Shown: positions 19,906 to 34,263 of the stretch, piece by piece
How positions within the stretch are numbered: position 1 is the stretch's first letter
Layout: every line of letters starts with the position of its first letter
Assembly (NCBI RefSeq): GCF_000420625.1
Contig: NZ_ATVH01000014.1
Span: 470,348 to 534,347, forward strand
Source: Fodinicurvata sediminis DSM 21159
Lineage (GTDB): Bacteria; Pseudomonadota; Alphaproteobacteria; Kiloniellales; DSM-21159
Direction of reading: 5' to 3'
DNA: 64,000 nucleotides
Made by a program: the position numbers and the translations under genes
Notes under the pieces: model-generated
What the model was told of the DNA's origin: nothing
The model's database searches: none
What the model saw: the letters and a program-made list of their open reading frames with translations, nothing else

Positions 19906-20703
19906 ATGACAGGAGACAAGTGGTTCATGCCCCCACCCGCCGGCAGGGGGTCACGGCACACACGTCTGCGGCTGTTCTGCTTCCCCTTTGCCGGGGGCGG
20001 GGCCGCAGTCTATCGGTCCTGGCAGGACAAGCTGCCTGAAGAAATCGAGGTGCGCCCGGTCTGCCTGCCCGGCCGTGAACAGCGTTTCGGCGAAGCGGCG
20101 TTCGAAGCCATCGACGATGCGGTCGCCGCACTGATCGATGCCATTCGCCCCATGGCGGCCACGCCTTACGCCTTCTTTGGCTATTCCATGGGGGGCATCA
20201 TCGCGCACCATCTGGCTTGCCGTCTCATGGCTGATGGCGCGCCCCTTCCCGCACATCTCTTCATTGCGGCCCTGCGCGGTCCGAACATGACAGCACCGCG
20301 CCGACAGCTTCATTCCCTGCCATCGGATGACTTCTGGTCCGAGGTCGCCGCATATGGCGGAACACCCGCCGAAATCCTCGAAAGCAGCGAGTATCGCACC
20401 CTGTTCGAGCCTTCCCTGCGCGCCGATTTCAAGCTTGCGCAAACGGCCTCCTCGGCCGATCTCCCCCAACTGGCGTGCCCGATCACGGCTTTCGGGGGCA
20501 CCGATGACAGCAACCCTGCACCGACGGATCTGGATGGCTGGCGGCAGGCAACAACAGGGCGGTTCGAGAAGCACATCTATCCCGGTGGGCATTTCTTCAT
20601 GGCCCAGAACGAGGTGCCGATGCTCGAGCTCATCGCGACAAAACTCGGCTGTCCGCCGGTTGCGGGTGGACAGGAAAGCTACTCCCGGACTTCGTCGAAC
20701 TGA
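19906..20703 (+). CDS. type II (editing) thioesterase, alpha/beta hydrolase
   Basis: LFCFPFAGGGAAVYRSW...FGYSMGGIIAHHLA...GGHFF are the classic TEII motifs (GxSxG = GYSMG); ~260 aa. Confidence 0.85.
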   Translation: MTGDKWFMPPPAGRGSRHTRLRLFCFPFAGGGAAVYRSWQDKLPEEIEVRPVCLPGREQRFGEAAFEAIDDAVAALIDAIRPMAATPYAFFGYSMGGIIAHHLACRLMADGAPLPAHLFIAALRGPNMTAPRRQLHSLPSDDFWSEVAAYGGTPAEILESSEYRTLFEPSLRADFKLAQTASSADLPQLACPITAFGGTDDSNPAPTDLDGWRQATTGRFEKHIYPGGHFFMAQNEVPMLELIATKLGCPPVAGGQESYSRTSSN

Positions 20704-22334
20704 CCATCCCGGACATGATAGACCCGGTCTGCGACATGAAACCACCGGTCATCATGGGTGACACAGATCAGGATCTTGCCTTGGTCACGCAGGCTGGGCA
20801 GGATTTCCTCATAGAAAATGGCCCGAAAATGCGGATCCTGGTCCGCCGCCCACTCATCGAGAACCAGGATTGGCTTCTCCTCCAGTTGCGCGACGATCAG
20901 AGCCAGGCGCTTCCTCTGCCCCTGGGAGAGTGCGGTGGTCGAGAATGCGTTGTCCTCAAGCGCAACCTTGTGCTCGACCTCCATCTGGTGGATCAGGGCA
21001 TCGACACGCTCGGGATCGACCGGATCGATGCCATAGAGTTCGCCAAACAGGTGATATCCCGAAAGCACTGTCGCGAACTGATCACGATATGACTGCAACC
21101 GGTCAACAGGCACGGCTATGTCGTTCACGGTGATTTCGCCGCTGTCCACCGCGCGCAGGCCGGTCAGCAGAGCAATGATCGTGGATTTCCCGGCGCCATT
21201 CCCACCTGTAATGAACGTGATTTCACCGCCTTTGAAACCTGCATTCAGAGGACCGACACCGAAGCCTCCGGTTGGTCCCGGATAGGTGAAGTGCACATCC
21301 TTGAGCGCGATTTCCCGGATATCCGAAAGGCTATCCGCGACAGGGTCGGAATGTCCGCTAAGCTCCGTGGTGATACCGCCCCCTACTTCGCGCTGTTTTT
21401 CCAAGGCGTCGCCAAGCCGGTTCTCGAGTTCGGTGATCTTCGAGATCGCCGCGTCGGCATCGTTGAAACTCGGCACCGCCATAATGGTCGATCCGATCGG
21501 GCCCAGAAGAAACAGGGTGGCCGTTGCCGTTTGCACGGCAACATCATGATAGTCCGTCGTGAAGTTCGGGACGATGAACACCATCGCGGCCATCATGAAA
21601 TAGAAGGCCAGCTGGATACTGGCCGTCTCACGCGCCCACTGGGCCTTGGTCGCCGACTTGGTGTCCCGCGCCCGCCCCGAACGCTCATGCAGCTGTGCCA
21701 GCAGCGCATCACGCCGCAGGCTGTTCATCTTGACCTCCTTGAAGCCATCCAGAAGGTCGCTCAGCCCGCCGAACAGCTGGCCTTCGTCCTCCACGGCGGC
21801 GCGGGTAGCGGCGCTGATCCCGCGGACGCGATGCAGATGAATGCCGACAGACAGGACGGCCAGCACGCCCACGATGACGAAGGCGAACAGCGACAGCCAC
21901 GCCAGATAGAGACTGACAAAGACGATTAGCACCAGTTGCTGAACGCCGTTCAGCATCATCGGCAAGGAATTCGAGATGGTCTGCATCTCCTGTGTCAGGG
22001 CGGTCTGGACCGGCCCCTGGCCAACGGAGTCCAGAACCTCGGGACCGGATTTGCGCACACGGTCGAACAGGTTCAGCCGGAATTGGTGCAGCACCCGTTC
22101 GACCTCGGCCGAAACGAGAACATCGGACTTGTGCTGCGCCCAGATGAAGCCCAGCAAGGAAACCGCCATCAGGCTCATCAAGCGCGGGCTGACCTCGCGG
22201 TTCTGAGCCTGCTCGGAGGCAAGGTTGACGATCACCAGAACCATGGTTGTCGAGATCGCCGCCATGACCAGCAGCGCCATGACGGTTCTGAGGTCGATCC
22301 GGGCCCGGGACCGGAGAATGTCGAACAACCGCAT
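20679..22334 (-). CDS. cyclic-peptide/siderophore export ABC transporter, fused permease-ATPase (SyrD/PvdE/YojI family)
   Basis: 551 aa: N-terminal ~6 TM, then Walker A GGNGAGKST, signature LSQGQRKRL, Walker B ILVLDEWAADQD. Confidence 0.85.
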   Translation of the reverse strand: MRLFDILRSRARIDLRTVMALLVMAAISTTMVLVIVNLASEQAQNREVSPRLMSLMAVSLLGFIWAQHKSDVLVSAEVERVLHQFRLNLFDRVRKSGPEVLDSVGQGPVQTALTQEMQTISNSLPMMLNGVQQLVLIVFVSLYLAWLSLFAFVIVGVLAVLSVGIHLHRVRGISAATRAAVEDEGQLFGGLSDLLDGFKEVKMNSLRRDALLAQLHERSGRARDTKSATKAQWARETASIQLAFYFMMAAMVFIVPNFTTDYHDVAVQTATATLFLLGPIGSTIMAVPSFNDADAAISKITELENRLGDALEKQREVGGGITTELSGHSDPVADSLSDIREIALKDVHFTYPGPTGGFGVGPLNAGFKGGEITFITGGNGAGKSTIIALLTGLRAVDSGEITVNDIAVPVDRLQSYRDQFATVLSGYHLFGELYGIDPVDPERVDALIHQMEVEHKVALEDNAFSTTALSQGQRKRLALIVAQLEEKPILVLDEWAADQDPHFRAIFYEEILPSLRDQGKILICVTHDDRWFHVADRVYHVRDGQFDEVRE

Positions 22335-22336
22335 GG

Positions 22337-23989
22337 TCAGATCCTCCCGCGTGCATCGTCAGCCTCGAGTTCAACAAGTTTGCCGGTCTCAAGATGCAAA
22401 CGACGGTCCGGAACATCGAAGTAATGATCGTCATGCGTAACCGCGATGATCGTGGTGCCACGCCTTTTCAGTTCGGGCAGGATCTCGTGATAGAACTTCT
22501 TGCGGAACTGCGGATCCTGGTCGGCCGCCCATTCGTCCAGGACAATAATCGGGCGATGCTCCAGGATCGCCGTAATCAGGCCCAGCCGTTTGCGTTGTCC
22601 GGCCGACAGGTCGATTGTTGTATAGCGCCCATCCTGAATGCTGGTGGCATGGGCCATCTCGAAGCGTTCAAGCCAATAGGCGGCTTCCTCAGGATCAATC
22701 CCATCAATGCCATGCAGATCGGCAAACAGATGGGAGTCCGAGAACACCGTGGCGATCAGGTTGCGATAGGGTGCGATGCTTTGCGGTCCCAACTGAAGCT
22801 GGTCGATCCTGATCGTCCCAGACACCGGCCGGTAAAGCCCGGTCAGCAGCTTGACCAGTGTCGATTTCCCCGCTCCATTGCCCCCAGTTACAAACAGAAG
22901 CTCCCCGCGCTCGATGGAGAGATCGAGGGGACCAAGCACGAAGCCGTGTCGCGGATCGCGACCGGGGTAGGTGAAGGTCACCTGGTCAAAGGTGATGCGG
23001 TTGAACTCGGACGGCAGGGCCGCAGTCCCCTCATCGGCGATCGGTTCGCTGATGGTCGAAAGATCCTTCGACAGTGCCGCCATGCGCTGTGCGGATTGTT
23101 CGGCCAGGCCGAGGACAGTCATGGACTGCACGATGATGCTGATGGGCCCGATCATGAAAAGGACCGCCGTGACGATCTTCGAGATATCGGTGCCAAGGCT
23201 TGCCGTATAGACTGGCACGACAAATACGATCACGGCCAGCAGGACATAGAAGGCCGAAATGCCCATGATCATCTGGCGCGATATCAGGCGATGGGCGGTC
23301 TGGCCGATTTCCATCTTGTCTTCCGACGTACTCGCGAAGGATGCATAGAGCGTGTCGCTGCGCCGCGACCACATCCGGACTTCCTTGATGCCGAAGAACA
23401 GGTCGGCAATCTTCCCGAACAGGACCCCTTCGATCCGGTGAAGCTCGCCGAACCAGTCCGACAGAGTCCGACCCATGCGCAGGTAGATAACGATGCCGAC
23501 CCCGATCACGACAACGATCAGGAAAAAGGCCAGCGCGGAAAGCCAGAAGACATAGACCATCACTGCAACCAGCAACAGCAGGCTGCGGAAGGTCATTCCG
23601 ATCAGGTGCGAGTTCTGGGAAATGACCTGAGTGCTTTGGGTGATGCTGTCATAAAGCCGGGCCTGCCCGAATGTTTCGAGTTGGGCGAAATCGGCCGCCG
23701 CGATCTGCCCGAAAAGCCGCTTGCGAACCTTGTCGATGCCATCCTCGATCTGCCTGGCAATATTGCTCAGCAGATAGACCTCGGCCAGGAAATAGACGAC
23801 GGAAATAAGAATGAAGATGCCGGCCAGAAGCCAGTTGACGCGGTCCAGGCCGTTGTCGCTGATTTCCTCGGCTGCAGAGTTCACGATGCCAAGAAGGGCG
23901 GCACTTCCGATACCGGAAAGCGTTCCCGCAATGGCCAGCCGGAGCATGAACCTGTTATCGCCCCAGGATAACAATTCCAGCAACTTCAT
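22337..23989 (-). CDS. cyclic-peptide export ABC transporter, fused permease-ATPase (paralogue, likely heterodimer partner)
   Basis: 550 aa with the same architecture: GGNGAGKST, LSAGQRKRL, IVLDEWAADQD. Stop is 2 nt from the downstream paralogue. Confidence 0.85.
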   Translation of the reverse strand: MKLLELLSWGDNRFMLRLAIAGTLSGIGSAALLGIVNSAAEEISDNGLDRVNWLLAGIFILISVVYFLAEVYLLSNIARQIEDGIDKVRKRLFGQIAAADFAQLETFGQARLYDSITQSTQVISQNSHLIGMTFRSLLLLVAVMVYVFWLSALAFFLIVVVIGVGIVIYLRMGRTLSDWFGELHRIEGVLFGKIADLFFGIKEVRMWSRRSDTLYASFASTSEDKMEIGQTAHRLISRQMIMGISAFYVLLAVIVFVVPVYTASLGTDISKIVTAVLFMIGPISIIVQSMTVLGLAEQSAQRMAALSKDLSTISEPIADEGTAALPSEFNRITFDQVTFTYPGRDPRHGFVLGPLDLSIERGELLFVTGGNGAGKSTLVKLLTGLYRPVSGTIRIDQLQLGPQSIAPYRNLIATVFSDSHLFADLHGIDGIDPEEAAYWLERFEMAHATSIQDGRYTTIDLSAGQRKRLGLITAILEHRPIIVLDEWAADQDPQFRKKFYHEILPELKRRGTTIIAVTHDDHYFDVPDRRLHLETGKLVELEADDARGRI

Positions 23990-24092: not shown

Positions 24093-25202
24093 TCAATGAG
24101 ATTCTCCGGGACTGGCCCCTTCACTGTTCACGACCAGCACCCTGCTTCGAGCGGTCAGCCCGAATTTTCCGCGCAACTCCCTGTTCTTCGCTGCATGCCA
24201 CAATCCGGCAATTCCGGAAATGCCGGTATCCCATGTATCCAAGGGTGCATCTCTTAGAAGGCCACAGCACAGCTGTTCCTGCACCTGAGCTGCCGTCGTA
24301 TCATCGATTGCAAGACTGCCCGCACAGACACTCCGAAGAATCTCAAGAGCCGGCAGGCTTGGACAGCCACAGGAAAGTCCCACCATGCGGGTTGATAGCG
24401 TTCCTGGCAGACGGGTCAGCCGGCCGCTCTCCAGGCTGGCTTTCACACAGGCAGCCGTTTCGGGTTCGACCGAATAGACAATCGGCTTGACCCCACTTTC
24501 CTGCCAGAAGCCGATGGCGCAGCCTGCCGCCATTCCGCCCACACCGCATTGCAGAAACAGGCTGTCGATCGCGACAGACTCTGAAGCGATTTGACGCGCA
24601 CACTCCACTCCCAAAAGGGCATAACCGGCCATGATATCGCGTGTGACCTCAAGGTTCCCACGGTAATCGGTATCGGTGACCAGGATCACGTTTGGCGCGT
24701 TCGCATTTTCCTCGGCGGCGGAGACGGCGTCATCATAGGTTCCATCCACCTTGACGATCTCGGCACCGCTTTCACGCAAGCGCTGTATCCGGGCCGTATC
24801 GACTTCGTTGCCGACGAAGATCCGGGCGCAACAGTTGAACTGTCTCGCCGCCCAGGCAAGCGCCAGCCCATGATTGCCGTCCGTTGCTGCAACCGCGATA
24901 TAGTCCCGGCAGCCAGGAGCTCCAGGATAGAGGCCAAGTTTCTGGAACTGCCGGCTCAGACCATAAGGCGCACCGAGAACCTTGACACCCCCCAACCCGA
25001 AACGCCTGCTTTCGTCCTTGATCCAGACCTCTCCCAGCGCCAGTTCGCGTGCAAGGCCGGGCGATGGCAACAGGGGGCTTGGCGCGTAATCCGGCCATGA
25101 GGAGATCTCCGTGACAGCTCGTCGAATCTCTGCAGGTATAACAACAGGGCTGTCAAAGCCACTCATGAGTTGCTCCGGAATGCAATCGACCTTAACAGCC
25201 AC
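24093..25202 (-). CDS. fold-type II PLP-dependent enzyme, diaminopropionate ammonia-lyase (DpaL/YgeX)-like
   Basis: WIKDESRRFGLGGVKVLGAPYG (PLP lysine) and ATDGNHGLALAWAA line up with DpaL KDESKRFGLNAFKMLGGAYA / TTDGNHGRGVAWAA; 369 aa. Confidence 0.65.
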   Translation of the reverse strand: MAVKVDCIPEQLMSGFDSPVVIPAEIRRAVTEISSWPDYAPSPLLPSPGLARELALGEVWIKDESRRFGLGGVKVLGAPYGLSRQFQKLGLYPGAPGCRDYIAVAATDGNHGLALAWAARQFNCCARIFVGNEVDTARIQRLRESGAEIVKVDGTYDDAVSAAEENANAPNVILVTDTDYRGNLEVTRDIMAGYALLGVECARQIASESVAIDSLFLQCGVGGMAAGCAIGFWQESGVKPIVYSVEPETAACVKASLESGRLTRLPGTLSTRMVGLSCGCPSLPALEILRSVCAGSLAIDDTTAAQVQEQLCCGLLRDAPLDTWDTGISGIAGLWHAAKNRELRGKFGLTARSRVLVVNSEGASPGESH

Positions 25203-25357: not shown

Positions 25358-26650
25358 TTGGTGGTGGGGATAATCTTGCGCGTGTTGGTGTCCCGAGCAG
25401 GAAAGTCGACTGGGTGGATCATCGCAAGCCTGTATCTGGCATGTGGAGTGGCAACCTTTGCGCTGGCACAAGAAGCACCACAGGAATTTCCCCTTCCGCA
25501 AGACGAGGCGCTTGGCAGCATTATCCTCGAAGAGACCGCCAAAGACTCCAATACCGACCGCTTCAAAAGCGGCGCCCTGATGCCTTCACCCCAGGATCAA
25601 CAGAGGGTCGACGGTCTGATCTATGAACCGGATGCCATTCCGCTGTCGCAATATCGTCGCCAGCTCGACGATTCGGCAAGCCTGATCTCCTTCTCCGAAT
25701 ATGACATTGCAAGCGATGGCGAGACCCGCCCGTCCTATTATGCAGCCATCTACAGCGGCAGCACGGGCGGCGCCTACTTCAAGGTTGCCGCAGCCATCTG
25801 CGACATGATGCGCCGAACCTACGAGCGTCACCGTGTTCGCTGCGTTCCGTTGCGCTCGCAAGGGGTTGGCAGCAACATTCAGCTCATGAACGAAGGGCGT
25901 GTTCAGATGGCGCTGGTGCAATCCAACAACAACTGGGAAGCACAGGAAGGGATCAATCCGATCCCCGGGGCCCGGTCCGTCATGTCGCTTCATGACGAAA
26001 TGGGACTTCTGGTCGTGCGCCGTGATTCCGATATTGAAAGCCTAGCCGACCTGCCTGGCAAACGCATCAATATCGGGCCGGAAGGCTCTGCTTCACGTGA
26101 ACTCTGGCTTGAGTTGCTTGAGCAGAACGAGATCGACCTCGATGACTTCGAGACGGTTTACAGTGTCGCCCAGGATTACAATCGGCAGGGTATCTGCAAT
26201 GACTACATCGATGCCTTCGGTCTCTGGATCGGACACCCCGTCCCGGTGATTGAAGAAAGCCTGGCCTGCGATTCCAAGGTCGTTGGCATGGGCGGAGAAT
26301 TGACCCGCGAGCTTGTCGAACAGCACCCCTACTACTTCAATCAGGTTTTGCCGACGGGCACCTACTCCAATCAGAACGAATCCATCGACTCATACGGCTT
26401 CAAGGCCTCCCTGATTGCCTATGAGCCAGCAGATCCCTACGTCGTTTATTGGGTGACACGCATCATTCACGAGAACATCGAAACACTGAGAGCAGAGTAT
26501 CCCACTTTCAGAAGCACAACAGCAGAGGACTTGTCTGAAAAAGGAAACTTCCTACCCTTTCACAGGGGCGCCGCATGCTATTGGCAAATACGCCCGGATG
26601 CCTGTGAATGGCAGGAAACCTACGACTCAGTCGCCCATTCAAGGGAATAG
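25358..26650 (+). CDS. TAXI-family TRAP-type periplasmic solute-binding protein (orphan, no permease nearby)
   Basis: YYAAIYSGSTGGAYFKVAAAICD is the hallmark TAXI motif. Signal-like N-terminus; start codon uncertain. Confidence 0.65.
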   Translation: MVVGIILRVLVSRAGKSTGWIIASLYLACGVATFALAQEAPQEFPLPQDEALGSIILEETAKDSNTDRFKSGALMPSPQDQQRVDGLIYEPDAIPLSQYRRQLDDSASLISFSEYDIASDGETRPSYYAAIYSGSTGGAYFKVAAAICDMMRRTYERHRVRCVPLRSQGVGSNIQLMNEGRVQMALVQSNNNWEAQEGINPIPGARSVMSLHDEMGLLVVRRDSDIESLADLPGKRINIGPEGSASRELWLELLEQNEIDLDDFETVYSVAQDYNRQGICNDYIDAFGLWIGHPVPVIEESLACDSKVVGMGGELTRELVEQHPYYFNQVLPTGTYSNQNESIDSYGFKASLIAYEPADPYVVYWVTRIIHENIETLRAEYPTFRSTTAEDLSEKGNFLPFHRGAACYWQIRPDACEWQETYDSVAHSRE

Positions 26651-26658
26651 GCAACAGG

Positions 26659-27342
26659 CTACCCCTGCATGAACTGGGCGGGCCTCCAACCTATCTCCGG
26701 AACTGTGTCGTCGGACGCCTTGCGGTAAGTCACTCCGACATAGCCAGCCTCGAGCAGTTCCTCGCAGCGCTCAAGATCATTGCACAGGCACCAGGTGCTC
26801 ATTTCCGATGGATCACTTGAGGAGGTCACCGTTCCGCTGTGATCCTCCAGGTCCCGGCGCAACAAGAATCGCTTGCCGCCGAACTTGCTGATCAAGTTGC
26901 GGATGGACAGACCGGCCGACAAGATATTAACAACGCTCGCATAATTTTCCGGAGCAACCGTGCTGAGCGCGATCTTGCGTCCGGCTTCCCTGGCTGCCTG
27001 CAGGCGGTGCTGGACCATCCTGTGCTGCCAACGAAGCCTGCGTTGATCGGCGCGCACCGCAACACCGTCTATATGTGCAACGCCCGCCAGTTCATGATCC
27101 GGAAGTCCATGATCCCTGCCAAAGTTGGGGTCTCCCGGACGGGGCAGGCCCAGGACGCCATAAGCGATCAGCCGATCATGCCTGAAGGCCCCGAAGATCT
27201 GTCCGCAGGCCGCCATGTGATCACGGAAAAACGCATCGGTTTCTCTTGCCACCAACTCAGGCGGAAATTCGCGTACGACTTCATGGTGCAGTGCAATCAC
27301 GGCCTCCAGGTGCGACTCGTTCAGACGGATGATCGGTGTCAT
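26659..27342 (-). CDS. hypothetical protein, possibly an acyl-CoA N-acyltransferase fold, uncertain
   Basis: ATG (MTPIIRLNESHLEAV...) lies 7 nt after the stop of the upstream MFS gene. Weak GNAT-like core (HIDGVAVRADQRRLRW...); no confident family assignment by eye. Confidence 0.35.
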   Translation of the reverse strand: MTPIIRLNESHLEAVIALHHEVVREFPPELVARETDAFFRDHMAACGQIFGAFRHDRLIAYGVLGLPRPGDPNFGRDHGLPDHELAGVAHIDGVAVRADQRRLRWQHRMVQHRLQAAREAGRKIALSTVAPENYASVVNILSAGLSIRNLISKFGGKRFLLRRDLEDHSGTVTSSSDPSEMSTWCLCNDLERCEELLEAGYVGVTYRKASDDTVPEIGWRPAQFMQG

Positions 27343-27349
27343 GAGATAC

Positions 27350-29359
27350 TCAAGAAAGCTCCCCTGAATCGCCGGACTTGGCCGCCTGCTCATTGGGGGC
27401 GATCCGGATCATGAGTTCGAAGGCCGTCACCGCAACAGCGGCAATGATGCCCAGCACAAGGACCGCACCCCCGGTACCGACCCATAGGGTCAATCCTGCT
27501 GCCAGTAACGGACCAAGCGCACCGCCCAATCGTTCAGCAAGGCGCAGCACGGCCAAGACCGGACCGGTCCCGTGACTGCGCGTAAACTCCTCACTGAGTT
27601 TAAGGCTTGCGGAAACCTGGGCAGGAATCGATGTCGCCTGTGCCAGCCCCAGCATTGCAATGGCCACGGCAAAAATCCCGTAGTCCGGCATCCATCCAGC
27701 CAGCAGGAGGCCGACAGCCGTAAGTGCGCCTCCAATACCCACCGCACGGGTTTCGTTCTGCTTGTCATCTGTCCAGCGCGCGATGGCCCAGCCGGTCAGC
27801 AAGGCCACCAGCCCGTAAAGCATGAGGACACGACCTGTCTCAGCCGTAGTGGCGCCGGACTGCAACAGGATAAGCGGGGTCAGATAATAGAGGAACCCGC
27901 TCAGGATCAGCTTGGCGGGAACGGCCGCAAAGAGAATCAGAACCTGAAACCGCCGATTGGACAGCATGGCCCGAAACGCCTCGCGTGTCGGAACCGGGGG
28001 TGTAGCCTGTCCCCGCACCCTGTCATCCATCAGGAAATAGGCCAGTGCCACGGCGAGGCCGGCCACTGTGCCCCCCGCCAGGAATGTGGCCGCTTCTCCG
28101 AAGTGGCCAGCAAGAATGCCCCCTATGGCAGGGCCGCAAATGTCGGCCAGCATGATCCCGCCGACCATCATGGCGGTCCCCTGCGTCCGGTTCTTTTCGT
28201 TGGTGGCGTTCAGCACATAGGACTGGCAAGCCACAAAGGTGGTCGCATAGCCGATCCCGGAGAGCGCCCGCCAGGACAAAAGGTCCCAGAAACCAATCGC
28301 GAAGGCCGTGCCAAACAGACCGACGGTCGCCAGAAACGCCCCTGCAAGATACATCCTCAGCGATCCGACCTGCTCCTGGAACAGGCTGCACAGCGGCATG
28401 GCGACAGCCACCATCAGAAGCTGCAAGGCCATGACAATGCCGGCACCCAACTGCCCGTCCAGGGTGTTCGCGGAAATCTCGCCAAAGAAACTCGGCATGA
28501 TCGGCCGGGCCAATTCCTCAGCCAGCACGAACAGGAATGCCAGCATCCGCACCCCGATCAGTTTTGCCTCCCGCACGCGATGAGGCTCGGTGCCGGCCTT
28601 GCGCGCCATATGGCCGATCATGGAATTCATGCGTTCCATGAAACGGCCGATTTCATCGTGGGTCGACTGGCCGTGCAGAAGGGTGAACTTGCGTGCGCGC
28701 ATGTTCAGCAGGACACGTTTGGCAACCCGCGCAGGCAGAACGACATTCACCGTCAGAACCAACAGGACCAGCTCAAAGGACAAGGCCAATGTAATGAAGA
28801 AGATGACCCCAATATCGTACAGGTTGTCTGTGACCGGGCGCATCAGGGCCGCCCTGTCGTGGCCAACAACGATGTCCAGGTTCTCTGCATTGCCTCCCGT
28901 AGGCTGAACCAGCACACGGGTTACGATATAGGGTGAAGTTTCTGTGTCCCCTGCCGGATCGAGGAGCGGGGCAATTTCCCCGGCCGAAAAGCCACCATTG
29001 TGCAGAATGGATTCATCCTGGACGACAGCGGCAAAGACCAGGTCCGGATCTCCATCCTGCAGCTGGCCAACAACCTCTCCAAAGCCGACGATCTCTTCCA
29101 CCGGGATTTCTAGATGCAGAGCATGCGCGATTCTCTCTGACAGTGTGCGCGCTTCGATTTCAGCCTTCTGGGTGATTTCGGATTGCAGGTCCGCGCGCGC
29201 CAGATCGGCAGCACGCCAGGAAACGGCGACCAGGGTGGCGCAAAGGGCAATGGCACTGAACAGAAGCAGGATCCAGATCTTGCCCCTGGGCAGCAGACGC
29301 CTGCGGGACTCCCTTCCCTTATCGACATTTTCCGAATTCGGCTCGGACAATCGGCTCAT
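27350..29359 (-). CDS. MFS transporter with a ~260-aa N-terminal sensor-like extension (TM-periplasmic domain-TM-cytoplasmic linker)
   Basis: 669 aa. Residues ~28-48 and ~185-210 are TM helices flanking a ~135-aa hydrophilic loop, then a cytoplasmic helical linker, then a 12-TM MFS core with G-rich loops (GPAIGGILAGHFG). Confidence 0.7.
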   Translation of the reverse strand: MSRLSEPNSENVDKGRESRRRLLPRGKIWILLLFSAIALCATLVAVSWRAADLARADLQSEITQKAEIEARTLSERIAHALHLEIPVEEIVGFGEVVGQLQDGDPDLVFAAVVQDESILHNGGFSAGEIAPLLDPAGDTETSPYIVTRVLVQPTGGNAENLDIVVGHDRAALMRPVTDNLYDIGVIFFITLALSFELVLLVLTVNVVLPARVAKRVLLNMRARKFTLLHGQSTHDEIGRFMERMNSMIGHMARKAGTEPHRVREAKLIGVRMLAFLFVLAEELARPIMPSFFGEISANTLDGQLGAGIVMALQLLMVAVAMPLCSLFQEQVGSLRMYLAGAFLATVGLFGTAFAIGFWDLLSWRALSGIGYATTFVACQSYVLNATNEKNRTQGTAMMVGGIMLADICGPAIGGILAGHFGEAATFLAGGTVAGLAVALAYFLMDDRVRGQATPPVPTREAFRAMLSNRRFQVLILFAAVPAKLILSGFLYYLTPLILLQSGATTAETGRVLMLYGLVALLTGWAIARWTDDKQNETRAVGIGGALTAVGLLLAGWMPDYGIFAVAIAMLGLAQATSIPAQVSASLKLSEEFTRSHGTGPVLAVLRLAERLGGALGPLLAAGLTLWVGTGGAVLVLGIIAAVAVTAFELMIRIAPNEQAAKSGDSGELS

Positions 29360-30207
29360 GCGTTCTTGTCCGCAGACGCAGGCACAGTCTTCTCCACTGC
29401 CGCGTCATGGGGCAGCTGATCGCGGATTTCACGATAGAGTTCAACCAGCTCCATCTCGCTTTCGGTCAGGACATCGCCATCATGGGTCGGGCCAGAACCG
29501 GCCTTGCCAGATTCTGCTTGTTCAAGATCCGCATGCAATTCGTCGAAAACGCGGTGGCGTCGGCGCATGAGAACCACTAACAGCCCCAGCACGGGGATGA
29601 TTGCCAGCATACCCATGCTGGCCGACTTCCACATTTTGGCAGAGGCGTTCTCAAGCTTCCGCCGGTATGTTTCGCCGTCAACCTGCAGGTGAAGAAGACC
29701 CGCACACTGGCCGAGACTGTCATACAGCGTGGTCCCTGCCGCCACTGCGTGTTCTCCGAAGTGAACCCAGTATGACTGTTCAATGTTACCGGGCGGAGGC
29801 GTGTCCGGAATACCGTTCGTATCCGGCAGGTCAGTGGTCGCAATCGGCGTTCCCTGGCAATCCAGTACGCTCATCCTTCTGATTTCCGGCGACATTGCGG
29901 CGCGCCGTTCGAGGATCTCCTCCAGGTTTTCCATGCTTTCAAGCCTGAGGCCCAAATCCATGGCCGCATGCAGGTCCTGATTGGTTTCAGAAGCAACGAC
30001 GTTGACCCGCTGCGTTAGCAAGGTTCGAAGCGTCTGCTCAAATCGAAGGTAATTGAGCACAGTCGTCATGCATAAAGCTGTGACGAACACGACGAACAAC
30101 GCCACGCCGATCTTCGTTGCCAGGTTCAAGTTGCAGCTCCAATCATCCCCGAGGCAGCTGGCAGGTTTCCAACAGCAAACTGGTACAGCCTGACTGCAAC
30201 CGATCAA
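29356..30207 (-). CDS. membrane protein with 2 TM helices flanking a periplasmic domain (sensor-like, no output domain)
   Basis: TM1 IGVALFVVFVTALCMTTVL, a ~170-aa hydrophilic domain, TM2 MLAIIPVLGLLVVLM, then a short acidic cytoplasmic tail. Stop overlaps the MFS start by 4 nt; true start codon uncertain. Confidence 0.45.
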   Translation of the reverse strand: MIGCSQAVPVCCWKPASCLGDDWSCNLNLATKIGVALFVVFVTALCMTTVLNYLRFEQTLRTLLTQRVNVVASETNQDLHAAMDLGLRLESMENLEEILERRAAMSPEIRRMSVLDCQGTPIATTDLPDTNGIPDTPPPGNIEQSYWVHFGEHAVAAGTTLYDSLGQCAGLLHLQVDGETYRRKLENASAKMWKSASMGMLAIIPVLGLLVVLMRRRHRVFDELHADLEQAESGKAGSGPTHDGDVLTESEMELVELYREIRDQLPHDAAVEKTVPASADKNA

Positions 30208-30507
30208 AGTTCAATTGCTTCTTGATGAAGGTCAAGCTCTGCATGACTTCCGTTCTGTCAGGGTCAGACACTCGTCTTCCCGCCAATGCGACGCCGAAAA
30301 AAGAAGTGGAGGACAGTGGAGCCTTGCAAAAGGGATGGTGTCCGCCATTCAAGGAATCTCAACAGGCGCTTCAAGCTTGATGGCAGACCTTATCAGACGG
30401 CATTCATAATCTTAATAGAGACCCCTGAAACGATTGCAGTCTATAGTGTTAGCGTTTACGCTTCGCCCCGCTGATGGGGAGAAGAAAAAGAACTGCAGGG
30501 GGACCTA

Positions 30508-31014
30508 TTGGACAGTGAAAAGCTGGAAGCATTGAAGCGCAAGGCACGGCATCGTCGTGCCTCGTCCATTGTTCAGCGCAACACACTCTGGGCCGCCGGT
30601 ACAGGCCTGATACCAATTCCCGTTTTGGATTCGGCGGCGATCGTTGCGGTGCAGCTGAAGATGCTGGCCGAAATCAGCAACGTCTACGGGGTCCATTTCC
30701 AGAAAAGCAGCGGCAGGTCCGTCATTGCAGCGTTGATGACCAGCCTGACCAGCAATGTGCTTGGCAAATCGCTTCTGGGGACAGGTATATTCTCCAGCCT
30801 GTCCAAGACGCTTCCGGTCATTGGCTCGACATTGAGCATCCTGACCATGCCTGGCTTCAACGCGGCGTTCACTTATGCACTGGGCAAGGTCTTCCAACAG
30901 CATTATGCCCTTGGGGGAACCTTGCAGGATTTCGACCCCAAGAAGGCAGAACCCTATTTCCACGAGAAGCTTAAAGAAGGTTTCGTGTTCTCCCAGAAGG
31001 CAAAATCAGCCTGA
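30508..31014 (+). CDS. DUF697-like (YcjF-type) membrane-associated protein, paralogue 1
   Basis: TTG start preceded by GGGGGA. AAGTGLIPIPVLDSAAIVAVQLKMLAEI... matches the DUF697 pattern as I recall it. Clear paralogue of 32808..33383. Confidence 0.45.
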   Translation: MDSEKLEALKRKARHRRASSIVQRNTLWAAGTGLIPIPVLDSAAIVAVQLKMLAEISNVYGVHFQKSSGRSVIAALMTSLTSNVLGKSLLGTGIFSSLSKTLPVIGSTLSILTMPGFNAAFTYALGKVFQQHYALGGTLQDFDPKKAEPYFHEKLKEGFVFSQKAKSA

Positions 31015-31056
31015 CCGGACAAGCCCGACAAACCCAAGGCATCAGGACCTGACCCC

Positions 31057-31254
31057 ATGTATTTGATGGTAATCATGCTTTATATCCTGGCCGCGGTCGT
31101 TTGCGGCCTGCTGGGCCGGCATACTTCTTTCGGATTCCTGGGGCATTTCATTCTGGCGATCTTCATTACGCCGGTTGGGGACTTTCTGGTGCAGCTTGTC
31201 GCGCGACCCTCAAAGGAGATTCGCCGGAGAATCCAGGATATCGATGAGAACTAG
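31057..31254 (+). CDS. small hydrophobic protein (65 aa, 2 predicted TM)
   Basis: MYLMVIMLYILAAVVCGLLG...FILAIFITPVGDFLV. Sits between the DUF697 and SPFH genes on the same strand. Confidence 0.3.
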   Translation: MYLMVIMLYILAAVVCGLLGRHTSFGFLGHFILAIFITPVGDFLVQLVARPSKEIRRRIQDIDEN

Positions 31255-31300
31255 CGTGCAATCGACCCTCCGCATGACGCATACGAAAGTGAAATGACGA

Positions 31301-32701
31301 ATGGTTGACAGCACGGCAACGCCGGCCGGCCGGCCACATGATGATCCCGGCCAGGACGAAAGTCGCTTGCGGGGTAGCTGGTGGCGGTTCGTCGAGAAAT
31401 TCGGCCGCTTCTTCAAGCGTTTCCAGGCAGGCCTGCTAATCACGATCTTCTTTATCCTGATCGCAATGATCGTATTGGCGCCTCAGATCTTCATCACGAT
31501 CCCCGCCGGGCATGTCGGTGTGATGTGGTATCGCTTCTTTGGCGGCACGGTCGTTGATCATACCTATGGCGAAGGCATCCACATGATCTTCCCGTGGGAC
31601 AAGATGTTCGTCTATGACGCGCGCCTGCAGAATCAGGCGCGCATCTATGACACGATCTCGTCGAACGGACTGTCGATGGAAGTCGACATTGCGGTGCGCT
31701 ACCGCATCAACCGTGAAGCCGCCGGCATGCTTCACAAGCTCGTAGGGCCGAACTACCCTGAGATTCTCGTTTATCCTGAAATCGGATCACATGCACGCGA
31801 ACTGATTTCTCGCTATACACCGGAACAGCTCTATACGGAAACCCGCGCCTTCATTCAGGCTGAAATTCTCGAACGCATGGTCAACGAGCTTGGCTCTTCG
31901 CTCTTGAATCAGAGCTTTCAGGGACGCTTGGTAACAGTTGAGGATGTACTCATCCGCTCGGTCAAGCTGCCTGAACGTGTGGCCAACGCGATCGAACGCA
32001 AGGCTGAACAATATCAGATCATGCAGGAATACGACTTCCGCCTGGCGCGCGAAGCCAAGGAAAGGGATCGCAAGAAGATCGAGGCGGAAGGCATCCGTGA
32101 ATTCCAGGACATCGTTGCCAAGACGATCACCGAGGAATATCTGCGCCTGCGTGGCATCGAAGCGACCATGTCGCTGGCAACCTCGAAGAACAGCAAGACC
32201 ATCATCATCGGCGGCAAGGACGGCCTTCCGGTCATTCTCAATACGGGAGAAACCGGGACTCCTTCAGGATCCGCAGCAGGCACTCCCGAATTGACGGGCG
32301 ATTCGGCGGATAGCCTGCCCCTGCCAAACGAAACCAATGCCAATTTCCGTGAAATCTCCCCACACAATTCAGTATCGCCAGGCGTGCGCGAAGAGGGGGG
32401 CGGCGAGTCCAGGACCAGGCCAACAACGACGGACCAGTCCAGGAGTCCGGCGGGCAGCCCTCTCAGGGCTCCGGGCCCCGAGGTGCAGTCCAGCACACCT
32501 ACGGCCAGACCGGCAAACCCTGATAGTGAAGAGGAGACAGCGCCTGGCAATATCGAAAGGGTGATGCGTTCCCTCTCGCCAATTTATGACCCAAGTGCCG
32601 GAAACGCGAGCAAGAATCCTCCTGCACCCCCGGGTACAAGATCACAGCCGGAACATGAACCAGAAGCCCAACCGGAAATGAAAACAGATTCAAAACAATA
32701 G
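31301..32701 (+). CDS. SPFH/band-7 (prohibitin/HflC/flotillin-like) membrane protein with long Pro/Ser/Thr-rich disordered C-terminal tail
   Basis: N-terminal TM (LLITIFFILIAMIVLAP), SPFH core (...VDIAVRYRINREAAGMLHKLVGPNYPEILVYPEIGSHARE...), a coiled-coil (AEQYQIMQEYDFRLAREAKERDRKKIEAEGIREFQ) and a ~170-aa low-complexity tail. Confidence 0.75.
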   Translation: MVDSTATPAGRPHDDPGQDESRLRGSWWRFVEKFGRFFKRFQAGLLITIFFILIAMIVLAPQIFITIPAGHVGVMWYRFFGGTVVDHTYGEGIHMIFPWDKMFVYDARLQNQARIYDTISSNGLSMEVDIAVRYRINREAAGMLHKLVGPNYPEILVYPEIGSHARELISRYTPEQLYTETRAFIQAEILERMVNELGSSLLNQSFQGRLVTVEDVLIRSVKLPERVANAIERKAEQYQIMQEYDFRLAREAKERDRKKIEAEGIREFQDIVAKTITEEYLRLRGIEATMSLATSKNSKTIIIGGKDGLPVILNTGETGTPSGSAAGTPELTGDSADSLPLPNETNANFREISPHNSVSPGVREEGGGESRTRPTTTDQSRSPAGSPLRAPGPEVQSSTPTARPANPDSEEETAPGNIERVMRSLSPIYDPSAGNASKNPPAPPGTRSQPEHEPEAQPEMKTDSKQ

Positions 32702-32807
32702 TTGCTCTTGCAATTTGCGATAGACTACAAATTCGAGTATCTTACACCACCATTTAAAAATCAGAATACCGAGTCCAAAGGCCAACGACACTTGAAAAGG
32801 GGCGAGC

Positions 32808-33383
32808 ATGAGCGAAGAAGAGAACACAGAGCAAACTGAAGAAGTCACTGTCACGGAATCTGACGAACACCACACTCAGGCTCGCGACTGTATCCATCGC
32901 CACAGCGCCTATGCCGCGGTCGGTGGTCTCGTTCCAATTCCCTTCCTCGAAATGGCGGCAAGCAGCACCATTCAGTTGCGGATGATCGCAAAGCTTTGCG
33001 ATATCTTTGGGGTGCCCTTCTCTGAGAACGCGATCAAGAACTCGATTGCAACTCTGGTGGCAACGGTTCTGCCAGCATCCGGCATTGGGCTTGCAACAGC
33101 CAGCCTGATCCGCCGCGTTCCGGTGGTTGGCACAATTTTCGGTGTTGTTGCCATGCCGACCTTTGCAGCGGCCTGTACCTATGCATTGGGGCGCGTTTTT
33201 GCCTGGCATTTTGCCAAAGGCGGTACTGTTGATGATTTCGATGCCGAGGAAATGAAAGGTCGTTTCCAGGACGAGTTTGCCGAGGGCAAGCGCAAGGCTT
33301 CGGATTTCGTCAAGGGAGAGAAGGCCAGTTCAAAGACAAGCGGCACAAAGACTCCAGGGGGCGCAGCAGCTGCCAAAGCCTGA
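32808..33383 (+). CDS. DUF697-like membrane-associated protein, paralogue 2
   Basis: AAVGGLVPIPFLEMAASSTIQLRMIAKLCDIFGVPF... is colinear with paralogue 1 (GxxPIPxxDxAA...QLxMxA...GxxF). Confidence 0.45.
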   Translation: MSEEENTEQTEEVTVTESDEHHTQARDCIHRHSAYAAVGGLVPIPFLEMAASSTIQLRMIAKLCDIFGVPFSENAIKNSIATLVATVLPASGIGLATASLIRRVPVVGTIFGVVAMPTFAAACTYALGRVFAWHFAKGGTVDDFDAEEMKGRFQDEFAEGKRKASDFVKGEKASSKTSGTKTPGGAAAAKA

Positions 33384-33420
33384 CTTCAAGCTTGTTGTCC
33401 AGAACCGACCCGAATTTAGA

Positions 33421-33453
33421 ATGCCCAAAACCTGTTTTGGGCATTCTTTTTTC
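33421..33453 (+). terminator. rho-independent terminator
   Basis: ATGCCCAAA-acctgt-TTTGGGCAT followed by TCTTTTTTC, directly after the stop of 32808..33383. Confidence 0.8.
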
Positions 33454-33492
33454 TCGGGAGACACAAGCCCGGACACTTCGCGGTAAAGCGCG

Positions 33493-34263
33493 ATGAAGCC
33501 TCAAGACGCTGTCCGCGTCCATTCGCTTCAAATGAAACGTGCGAAAGGATCTGTGACCTTCTGCGATGTTACGTATCTGCGTGCGACACTGGTGGTCCTT
33601 GCGCTCGATCAGCTGGATGACGATTGCCTGGACGACTATATGACGTCCTGTTTTCATGCAGAGGAATGGGCCCGGCTGCAGGCGCTGGAACACGACAAAC
33701 GCAAGCAAAGCTACGCCACTGGGCGAATTGCCGCAAAGTTGGCCCTGAAAAGCCATCACGACGGCCTCGACCCACGTGAAATCTCCATTGGATCTGGCGT
33801 ATTCGAACAGCCAGTGATTTGCGTCACGTATCCAGGGATCAGCGAAACGGGCATATCCATTTCGCACTCGGCCAGCTACGCCGCAGCGCTGGTATTCCAT
33901 AGGGCGCATCCGATGGGGATCGATATCGATCTGCCGGCGAAGAAAGACATAGGACCAGTGCTTTCCGGCCTTGCTTCAGAGGAACGGGGTTTGCTCGACG
34001 ATCTGGGTCTCGATGAGTCTGCGGCGGCCACATTGATCTGGGTCGCCCGCGAAAGTCTCGCGAAGACGCTTACCACCGGCATGATGACGCCGCTGTCCAT
34101 CTACGCACCTTCCTCGATCGAGGCAGACAACGGTATTTTCACCCTTCGCTATCGCAATTTCGCCCAGTACCGCACCCTCGTCTGGCAGGGCCTCAAGGGG
34201 TGGCTGGCCGTGACACTTCCAGAACGGACCGCTCTCGACGTATCCAGCCTTCCATGGGCTTGA
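33493..34263 (+). CDS. 4'-phosphopantetheinyl transferase (Sfp/EntD type)
   Basis: GIDID motif (HPMGIDIDL) and WVARESLAKTL (the W/FxxKE[S/A]xxK motif); 256 aa. Confidence 0.8.
   Translation: MKPQDAVRVHSLQMKRAKGSVTFCDVTYLRATLVVLALDQLDDDCLDDYMTSCFHAEEWARLQALEHDKRKQSYATGRIAAKLALKSHHDGLDPREISIGSGVFEQPVICVTYPGISETGISISHSASYAAALVFHRAHPMGIDIDLPAKKDIGPVLSGLASEERGLLDDLGLDESAAATLIWVARESLAKTLTTGMMTPLSIYAPSSIEADNGIFTLRYRNFAQYRTLVWQGLKGWLAVTLPERTALDVSSLPWA

Follow-up and report, generated by a model that had tools for sequence, protein, structure and literature searches.

Why should a small set of membrane-protein genes, one of them for an SPFH protein, stand between the exporter genes and the assembly-line genes of a natural-product locus? 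The question is raised by a 64,000-nt stretch of the genome of Fodinicurvata sediminis DSM 21159 (contig NZ_ATVH01000014.1 of GCF_000420625.1, forward strand 470,348-534,347), here called the window and numbered from its first letter. Four + strand genes at 30508-33383 form a module that encodes DUF697a (168 aa, 30508-31014), a 65-aa protein named p65 (31057-31254), a 466-aa prohibitin-like SPFH protein (31301-32701) and DUF697b (191 aa, 32808-33383), with intergenic gaps of 42, 46 and 106 nt. An earlier note, made from the letters of the window, had placed these open reading frames (ORFs) at the same coordinates and on the same strand, between MFS/ABC exporter genes on one side and a phosphopantetheinyl transferase (PPTase) gene and nonribosomal peptide synthetase-polyketide synthase (NRPS-PKS) genes on the other. 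The ORF list bears this out, and an independent gene caller made identical calls on the public contig (L001) whose sequence is identical to the window.

The locus is the thalassospiramide-type (ttc-like) NRPS-PKS locus of F. sediminis. Its map contains the same genes in the same order as the published ttc flank, the TtcD PPTase and the TtcC/B/A synthetases (Zhang et al., 10.1101/560987, Supplementary Table 2). The answer favored here, at about even odds, is that the module supports the export step of NRPS/PKS products, as a scaffold or protective device in the inner membrane.

The proteins of the module

The 466-aa protein is 100% identical to the "prohibitin family protein" of F. sediminis and has a Band_7 domain (PF01145) at aa 66-245, scoring 85.8 bits against a gathering score of 23.6. 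Searches against all chains of the Protein Data Bank (PDB) returned prohibitin-1 and prohibitin-2 as the sole matches, both with the single sequence (phmmer, E=1.3e-12) and with a profile of 24 orthologues (E=5e-10). Residues 62-298 align to PHB2 39-269, from the SPFH domain through the coiled coil. Neither query retrieved a flotillin, stomatin, HflK/C or QmcA chain at E<=0.01, and the protein gives no match to the flotillin-domain family of Pfam. Since only PHB1/PHB2 are matched among the solved SPFH structures, the protein is prohibitin-like by sequence and not flotillin-like. The earlier note's Band_7 assignment and its long disordered tail are thus retained and its "flotillin-like" label is replaced.

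The predicted layout is a cytoplasmic N-terminus (aa 1-42), a transmembrane (TM) helix (aa 43-65; DNA 31427-31495), the SPFH domain with a long helix (aa 66-293), a conserved motif IIIGGKDGLPVILNT (aa 301-315) and a tail of about 150 residues (aa 316-466). The tail is rich in P, S, T and E (16% P, 13% S, 11% E and 10% T) and is predicted to be disordered, with an AlphaFold2 (AF2) predicted local distance difference test score (pLDDT) below 50. After the IIIGGKDGLPVILNT segment its length varies among orthologues, from 71 to 156 residues. One short stretch of it, NANFREISPHNSVSP (aa 346-360; 32336-32380, + strand), has the consensus NAR..D[IV].P.NA..P and recurs in most members of the 24-orthologue alignment within a tail that is otherwise unalignable. 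It could be a binding motif. Hydropathy gives a single hydrophobic helix (aa 43-61 by this measure), with five K/R in the 20 residues before it and one after it, and some SPFH relatives carry a C-terminal peptidoglycan-binding domain (PG_binding_1) in place of the tail. The positive charge on the N-terminal side of the helix, together with the peptidoglycan-binding fusions, suggests that the protein probably has its N-terminus inside and its SPFH body in the periplasm.

In the arrangement of an N-terminal anchor, SPFH domain, long coiled coil, conserved C-terminal segment and non-cytoplasmic bulk (the last predicted here), the protein resembles PHB1/PHB2 and HflK/HflC. Those proteins, however, form heteromeric pairs that enclose an AAA+ protease, whereas the module has a single SPFH gene and no protease encoded nearby. 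At the level of loci, neither the cassette of the window nor the related loci that were inspected contain a protease gene. The protein also differs from PHB and HflKC in its additional disordered tail with the short motif, and in its partners, which are DUF697, p65 and ABC half-transporters. Membrane proteases are so far the known clients of SPFH cages, and to our knowledge no function has been established for the bacterial prohibitin homologues.

One SPFH gene per module is the rule here and in nearly all related loci. The exception is a metagenomic contig (L068:5049-9293) in which two SPFH paralogues surround one ABC gene, the second paralogue ending in PG_binding_1; PPTase, thioesterase, p65 and DUF697 genes lie nearby. 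It is the sole PHB1/PHB2-like pair seen.

p65 consists, by hydropathy, of two hydrophobic helices forming a hairpin and a basic C-terminal tail, and it matches no Pfam family. Homologues of 57-75 aa are conserved in Alpha-, Beta- and Gammaproteobacteria with 12 invariant residues (L8, Y9, G17, G20, R21, T23, G26, F27, G29, F31, P39 and R50), so this short ORF is a real gene. In a census of 52 close loci, taken from one genome per species and each searched by tblastn with the window proteins, p65 is directly upstream of the SPFH gene in 49. The SPFH-NfeD operons (stomatin/NfeD, QmcA-YbbJ, YqiK-YqiJ) likewise have a small membrane-protein gene immediately upstream of SPFH, but p65 lacks the NfeD OB-fold and has no detectable similarity to YqiJ. 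The possibility that it is a truncated NfeD/YqiJ partner was rejected: hhalign against Escherichia coli YqiJ gave a probability of 0.4%, and weak YqiJ_N matches appeared in only six of 18 p65 orthologues (best E 0.066).

The two flanking proteins score 47.6 bits (DUF697a) and 36.6 bits (DUF697b) on PF05128, whose gathering score is 27.7. As the earlier note had proposed, they are paralogous to each other: 159 aa align at 38% identity (E=1e-36). On TIGR01620, the YcjF-type family, DUF697a reaches 17.5 bits against a cut-off of 160 and DUF697b gives no match, so by their profile scores both are DUF697-domain proteins and not YcjF orthologues. The AF2 model of DUF697a (pLDDT 75.7, predicted template modelling score 0.72) is all-helical with 6-7 helices, 2-3 of its segments being weakly hydrophobic. 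Foldseek found nothing similar to this model among PDB structures (best E 0.78, TM-score <= 0.34). DUF697b is acidic at its N-terminus and basic at its C-terminus.

In 31 of the 52 close loci p65/SPFH is immediately preceded by a DUF697 gene. Only in Thalassospira and Fodinicurvata does a copy follow SPFH, as DUF697b does; in other loci the second copy is 5.7-8 kb away on the opposite strand. In 11 loci the second DUF697 gene is immediately downstream of a gene for a 220-aa ParA/CbiA/MipZ-like P-loop ATPase (L007:3832-5096, - strand; equivalents in L030, L033, L037, L038, L040, L042, L043, L045, L047, L048 and L058). An IcmF-N-like P-loop protein precedes DUF697 in an Azospirillum locus (L063). 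The window contains no ATPase gene of this kind. This recurrent adjacency, which echoes the YcjX-YcjF pairing, suggests that DUF697 proteins may be membrane partners of P-loop NTPases. The module proteins share the DUF697 domain with YcjF, and other versions of the cassette place DUF697 beside a P-loop protein. They differ from the YcjX-YcjF system, which in Enterobacteria frequently adjoins the psp operon, in being about half the size of YcjF and in having neither a YcjX-like gene nor psp genes with them.

Linkage to ABC exporters and NRPS/PKS genes

The window encodes two adjoining ABC half-transporters of the cyclic-peptide-export type (551 and 550 aa; 20679-23989, - strand). They score 299.2 and 321.6 bits on TIGR01194 (cyclic peptide export), above its cut-off of 286.2. 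The ABC proteins of an Azospirillum paralogue locus stay under that cut-off, at 198 and 267 bits.

The close loci come from Alphaproteobacteria (Thalassospira, Fodinicurvata, Magnetospirillum, Telmatospirillum, Pleomorphomonas, Roseibium, Ruegeria, Rubricella, Agaricicola), Betaproteobacteria (Rhodocyclaceae, Methyloversatilis) and Gammaproteobacteria (Pokkaliibacter). Forty of them were available with at least 9 kb on each side, and fractions of 40 refer to this full-flank subset. A DUF697 gene of any position is found in 35/40 and the ABC pair in 35/40; NRPS/PKS genes lie within 10 kb in 27/40, and 16 syntenic loci have a PPTase gene. The adjoining assembly lines have at least four different architectures. 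Besides the ttc type (C-T-KS-AT-T etc.) there are C-A-KS-AT-T in Pleomorphomonas, AT-KS-AT-T-aminotransferase-C in Rhodocyclaceae, A-KS-AT-T in Telmatospirillum and C-A-T-TE in Roseibium.

Gene order around the module also varies. Magnetospirillum has ABC-ABC-TE-SBP-DUF697-p65-SPFH on one strand (SBP, solute-binding protein), and Roseibium and Ruegeria have p65-SPFH-ABC-ABC. The order DUF697-p65-SPFH-DUF697 is restricted to Thalassospira and Fodinicurvata. Thus the conserved core is the triad of DUF697, p65 and SPFH, and the four-gene order is lineage-specific. The earlier note had regarded the arrangement as unusual and had proposed to look for it in other genomes. It recurs in more than 60 loci and had already been tabulated as ttc +1..+4, and the triad recurs across classes. 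The flanking proteins match DUF697 and each other, and no wide occurrence outside biosynthetic gene clusters (BGCs) with a known function was encountered.

Thirteen more distant loci, with SPFH proteins 35-50% identical to the window protein, were examined with p65 and DUF697 profiles built here. p65 is present in 13/13 and DUF697 in 12/13, and in those 12 the two genes are directly side by side. An adjacent ABC half-transporter gene occurs in 8/13. Clear megasynthase genes are present in 9/13, NRPS accessory genes only in 2/13 and neither in 2/13.

The distant loci show the same genes in many permutations. One Azospirillum locus (L062) reads NRPS-TauD-ABC-ABC-hydrolase-DUF697-p65-SPFH on one strand, and another (L063) reads DUF697-p65-SBP-ABC-SPFH-ABC with gaps of 1 nt and 7 nt. 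In Skermanella (L064) ABC and SPFH overlap by 4 nt beside MbtH and NRPS genes. A 4-nt overlap of ABC and SPFH is also seen in Rhodobacteraceae SC52 (L065), where DUF697-p65 follows, and in a metagenomic contig (L073) with DUF697-p65-ABC-SPFH beside TauD and a 4772-aa NRPS. Endothiovibrio (L070) has DUF697-p65-SPFH and, after 24 nt, an NRPS gene of C-A-T-TE type. In Hyphomicrobium (L069) the triad has thioesterase and PPTase genes and a PKS beta-branching cassette as neighbors, and in Tistrella (pTM3, L066) DUF697-p65-ABC-SPFH lies near NRPS genes. Burkholderia is an exception, with no ABC and no DUF697; its NRPS genes are 3 kb away and p65 follows SPFH.

The ABC pair is the most consistent partner of this SPFH clade outside the module, and the linkage of the module to ABC exporter and NRPS/PKS genes is conserved through rearrangement. 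The 4-nt overlaps, indicative of translational coupling, and the sandwiching of SPFH between ABC genes make the exporter the most intimate genomic partner. The earlier note's notion of a scaffold linked to the BGC therefore stands as far as linkage goes, with NRPS/PKS genes near 27/40 close loci and megasynthase genes at 9/13 distant ones, and the link to the ABC genes is the tighter of the two. The part of that notion in which the SPFH domain docks the cytoplasmic megasynthetase is unlikely, the SPFH domain being predicted to be periplasmic.

Prohibitin/SPFH genes from outside the clade (26-30% identity; Hymenobacter, Halobacterium, Bacillus) have none of these partners. On a Halobacterium plasmid (L076:6758-14540), such an archaeal prohibitin gene and a 47-aa ORF are directly upstream of an IucA/IucC-type siderophore cluster. 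This adjacency may be a coincidence or may reflect a wider tendency of such genes to lie beside secreted-metabolite clusters.

Two further loci are of note. In Tistrella mobilis, whose thalassospiramide clusters lack the module, the DUF697-p65-ABC-SPFH set is on the megaplasmid pTM3 (656419-677369), where a type II thioesterase gene and further NRPS genes adjoin it. In Thalassospira, comparison of L002/L020:12220-15316 with L010:12169 onward reveals an indel of about 30 kb that does not disturb the cassette. The indel is the ttc NRPS-PKS block, to which the published table adds TonB-receptor and FhuF genes, and lies between DUF697b and a sensor-kinase/sigma-54-regulator pair. The idea suggested by L002/L020, that the module is a mere syntenic neighbor of an inserted BGC, is weakened by the wider census and by the distant relatives.

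Cis-elements and the surrounding cassette

Upstream of DUF697a, at 30424-30462 on the + strand, is a promoter/operator-like block (CCTGAA..TTGCAG, a 17-nt spacer, TACGCT). It comprises a predicted sigma-70-type -35/-10 pair plus extra conserved bases, and would act as the promoter of the module. Between Fodinicurvata and Thalassospira these roughly 40 nt keep at least 80% conservation, and the remainder of the divergent intergenic region has diverged. The motif TTGCAGTN8TTAGCGNTTAYG has a single copy in the window, where 0.05 would be expected by chance, and occurs once per locus at a fixed position in 15 fetched loci (14 Fodinicurvata/Thalassospira genome loci and L001). Conservation exceeds the -35/-10 hexamers, taking in CCTGAA upstream and TTAGCG within the spacer. 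Because it reaches beyond the hexamers, a regulator-binding site may overlap the predicted promoter; no regulator gene is conserved across the cassettes. As sigma-54 activators adjoin the module in Thalassospira, a sigma-54 promoter was also sought. It was rejected, with no -24/-12 motif in 30208-30507 and window-wide matches not above chance.

Downstream of DUF697b is an intrinsic terminator (33418-33455, + strand; AGAATGCCCAAAACC-TGTT-TTGGGCATTCT followed by a T-run), as the earlier note had recognized. Its hairpin, at 33418-33447, has a 13-bp stem and a 4-nt loop. Of 15 related loci, 13 keep the hairpin sequence, among them L020, where the NRPS genes are missing from the locus; a strong hairpin of another sequence takes its place in the remaining two. 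With a dedicated conserved promoter block and a conserved terminator, the module is by its sequence features a discrete transcription unit with its own cis-elements. The primary sequence of the hairpin (GAATGCCCAAAGC...GCTTTGGGCATTC) is conserved between the window and the region after DUF697b in L009-L026 and L057, across two families whose proteins are only 65-80% identical, which is more than a terminator requires. It was considered as a dispersed repeat or known RNA and rejected, being unique in the window and giving only sub-threshold chance matches in Rfam.

The cassette and BGC form an island of about 38 kb with housekeeping genes on either side. The left edge is marked by a type II thioesterase gene (19906-20703, + strand; Thioesterase, 145 bits), with the housekeeping genes further left. 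Beyond the ABC pair lie a diaminopropionate-ammonia-lyase-like pyridoxal-phosphate (PLP) enzyme (24093-25202, - strand; 267.8 bits, just under the curated cut-off of 276), a membrane-anchored TAXI binding protein (25358-26650, + strand) and a 244-aa GNAT-like protein (26659-27393, - strand). The TAXI protein carries its membrane anchor at the N-terminus and there is no TRAP permease nearby. A TAXI gene is present in 37/40 loci and the PLP enzyme in 32/40. In 32/40 related loci an ABC_sub_bind (TrpX-like) binding-protein gene separates the GNAT-like gene from the MFS fusion. It is present in the ttc/Thalassospira cassette, whereas both Fodinicurvata species lack it (window 26650-27393 versus L002:5203-6246).

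The MFS fusion is a 669-aa transporter with a sensor-like N-terminal extension (27350-29359, - strand; ttc +6; MFS_1 116 bits at aa 273-596). Its N-terminus of about 270 aa consists, by hydropathy, of a TM helix, a periplasmic domain of about 135 aa, a second TM helix and a linker. TM257, a 257-aa two-TM protein that matches no family (29356-30129, - strand, divergent from the module; ttc +5), has a TM helix, about 145 periplasmic aa, a TM helix and a cytoplasmic tail, also by hydropathy. Each is found in 33/40 loci, and both look sensor-like. Because of its matching layout, TM257 was considered a possible paralogue of the N-terminal domain in the MFS fusion, but no sequence similarity between the two was detected (E 0.28). 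Directly after the terminator of the module is the Sfp-type, TtcD-like PPTase gene (33493-34263, + strand), and then come the three NRPS-PKS genes (34305-58213, - strand). The G+C content of the module region (30001-34000) is 0.54-0.55, against 0.58-0.61 around it.

A possible role in defense against phages was rejected on the basis of PADLOC, which gave zero hits for four of five proteins and a noise-level match for DUF697b (E 0.0056, 14 bits).

What the module may do

The proposed mechanism is as follows. The four genes form one operon, which would encode an inner-membrane scaffold that acts on the export and handling side of NRPS/PKS clusters and not in the chemistry. A prohibitin-type SPFH protein, anchored by one N-terminal helix with its SPFH and coiled-coil body on the periplasmic face, would assemble into a ring or cage round a membrane patch that holds an exporter, the disordered tail reaching into the periplasm. 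p65 and one or two DUF697 proteins would be its integral-membrane partners, with soluble ends toward the cytoplasm. As its client the module would have the heterodimeric cyclic-peptide-type ABC exporter of its own cassette, and perhaps the MFS fusion as well. It would corral, stabilize or gate this exporter in a defined membrane patch, and might also shield the membrane from an amphiphilic product. The cage, its contact with the exporter and the outward direction of transport are proposed by analogy with SPFH proteins and their clients.

A precedent for an SPFH protein that is needed by an ABC-type permease is FloA, which is required for the heme permease IsdF in Staphylococcus aureus (eLife 2023, PMC10147376). 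It differs from the case here in that FloA is a flotillin facing the cytoplasm, and the importer is encoded elsewhere with no operon coupling and no DUF697 or p65. Closer to hand, a paper on Thalassobaculum sp., another Rhodospirillales genus, reported the same ABC-prohibitin adjacency beside an NRPS/PKS cluster with a single speculative remark on interaction. DUF697, the small protein and a comparative analysis are absent from it. No systematic description of the module was found in the literature.

The sole functional data come from the ttc locus of Thalassospira sp. CNJ-328 (10.1101/560987). Its flank lists +1, a DUF697 protein of 186 aa; +2, a prohibitin family protein of 420 aa; +3, a hypothetical protein of 63 aa; +4, DUF697; +5, a hypothetical protein of 260 aa; and +6, MFS. 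The order and sizes of ttc +1..+4 match the window, and Thalassospira loci have 64-84% protein identity to the window genes. Zhang et al. listed the flank genes as "hypothetical" with no analysis, and found that deleting ttc +1..+4 left both the titer and the product spectrum of thalassospiramide unchanged in Pseudomonas putida. The module is thus not needed for the biosynthetic chemistry, and the neutral deletion fits a non-biosynthetic role. The cloned ttc fragment stopped within the MFS gene (ttc +6 is listed as 324 aa; 10.1101/560987), and in related Thalassospira loci the ABC exporter genes are located beyond the MFS gene. The exporters were therefore apparently missing from the cloned fragment, and since the assay scored production in a host apparently without them, the deletion did not probe an exporter-related or self-protective role. 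In Fodinicurvata itself the thalassospiramide cluster is present and the product undetected according to a review, which blames absent efflux, signaling or amino-acid genes.

Several observations weigh against the proposed role in export. The only functional result is a negative one, and the client may not be unique. NRPS/PKS genes are absent within 10 kb in 13/40 close loci, Magnetospirillum, Pokkaliibacter and T. profundimaris among them. In some Thalassospira the cassette is followed by a sensor kinase and a sigma-54 regulator in place of the PPTase and NRPS genes, so the cassette can exist without ttc genes at the site. No ABC half-transporter gene is in the fetched flank of 5/40 close loci or of 5/13 distant ones; the triad there is still beside NRPS genes, and the exporter may thus not be an obligate client. 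Periplasmic binding proteins (TAXI, ABC_sub_bind, SBP_bac_3) are conserved in the cassette, which would fit uptake or sensing as well. The promoter motif of the module is not common to the other cassette or BGC promoters in the window, and its single copy led to rejection of the motif as an operator for the whole cassette or BGC. Lastly, the AF2 monomer of the SPFH protein is of low confidence (pLDDT 53) and was left unused for fold search.

A bolder form of the export reading, held tentatively and at well below even odds, is that the triad provides the structural subunits of an unrecognized transporter assembly. A periplasm-facing SPFH cage would enclose the heterodimeric cyclic-peptide ABC exporters and form a protected exit chamber for amphiphilic NRPS/PKS products, the disordered or peptidoglycan-binding tail may tie it to the cell wall, and DUF697 may tie it to cytoplasmic partners. 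If true, SPFH cages would gain a new class of client in the ABC exporters, and the triad would be a genomic marker of secreted lipopeptide and polyketide pathways in Proteobacteria.

Some of the same facts can be read differently. Triads that stand beside NRPS genes even where no ABC exporter is near, the promoter element and terminator that suggest separate regulation, and the unchanged production after the ttc +1..+4 deletion would all suit a Psp-like envelope-stress device, one that protects or repairs the membrane during synthesis and secretion of an amphiphilic product and has no specific contact with an exporter. SPFH proteins are general membrane organizers, and YcjF, the prototype DUF697 protein, is repeatedly tied to the phage-shock operon and a sigma-32 promoter. 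This explanation is nonetheless unlikely, as the 4-nt overlaps and the sandwiching of SPFH by ABC genes in several lineages point to a stoichiometric partnership, and the cassettes share neither conserved psp genes nor conserved stress regulators. The association with NRPS/PKS genes regardless of their architecture, and the NRPS termination module that follows the Endothiovibrio triad after 24 nt, raise instead the prospect that the DUF697 termini, the p65 tail and the SPFH N-terminus tether the megasynthetase to the membrane near the exporter, as the earlier note had first suggested for the module, with DUF697 as a possible adaptor for cytoplasmic partners in view of its P-loop pairings. The prediction places most of the SPFH protein in the periplasm, however, the Thalassospira deletion changed neither titer nor product spectrum in P. 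putida, and the Tistrella thalassospiramide clusters, which have no flanking synteny with ttc, function without the module. Tethering of this kind is accordingly regarded as improbable.

The direction of traffic bears on a further possibility, that the ABC pair, the binding proteins and the MFS fusion import or sense a product or precursor and that SPFH organizes this complex. Three kinds of solute-binding protein are conserved in cassettes that lack cognate permeases, the periplasmic domains of the MFS fusion and of TM257 look sensor-like, and TonB-receptor and FhuF genes adjoin ttc in Thalassospira CNJ-328. Yet both ABC proteins exceed the curated cut-off for cyclic-peptide export, and the type II thioesterase and PPTase neighbors fit export and biosynthesis. 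We know of no thalassospiramide that acts as a metallophore, and import or sensing is given a somewhat lower chance than tethering. Least probable of all, and very unlikely, is a protease-regulating complex of the HflK/C-FtsH or prohibitin-m-AAA kind that shares the BGC neighborhood simply by descent. The nearest solved relatives are indeed prohibitins, and some database names read "regulator of protease activity HflC". Against it, the cassettes examined contain no protease gene (a protease encoded elsewhere in the genome would still be compatible), each module has a single SPFH gene and not an HflK/HflC or PHB1/PHB2 pair, and descent alone is insufficient for an ABC/NRPS linkage that outlasts many rearrangements and spans classes.

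The scaffold for export thus remains the reading preferred here. The block itself was already in the literature as ttc +1..+4; what is new is an SPFH clade defined by its DUF697 and p65 partners, by ABC exporter operons and by NRPS/PKS adjacency. The comparative picture helps to interpret the neutral deletion, in which production was scored in a host apparently lacking the cassette exporters. If the link is functional, it would provide a concrete and testable client for a bacterial prohibitin and a first functional context for DUF697 and p65. It would also draw attention to an overlooked layer of export or self-protection in natural-product clusters, one that could bear on heterologous yields and on genome mining, where the triad could be used as a marker.

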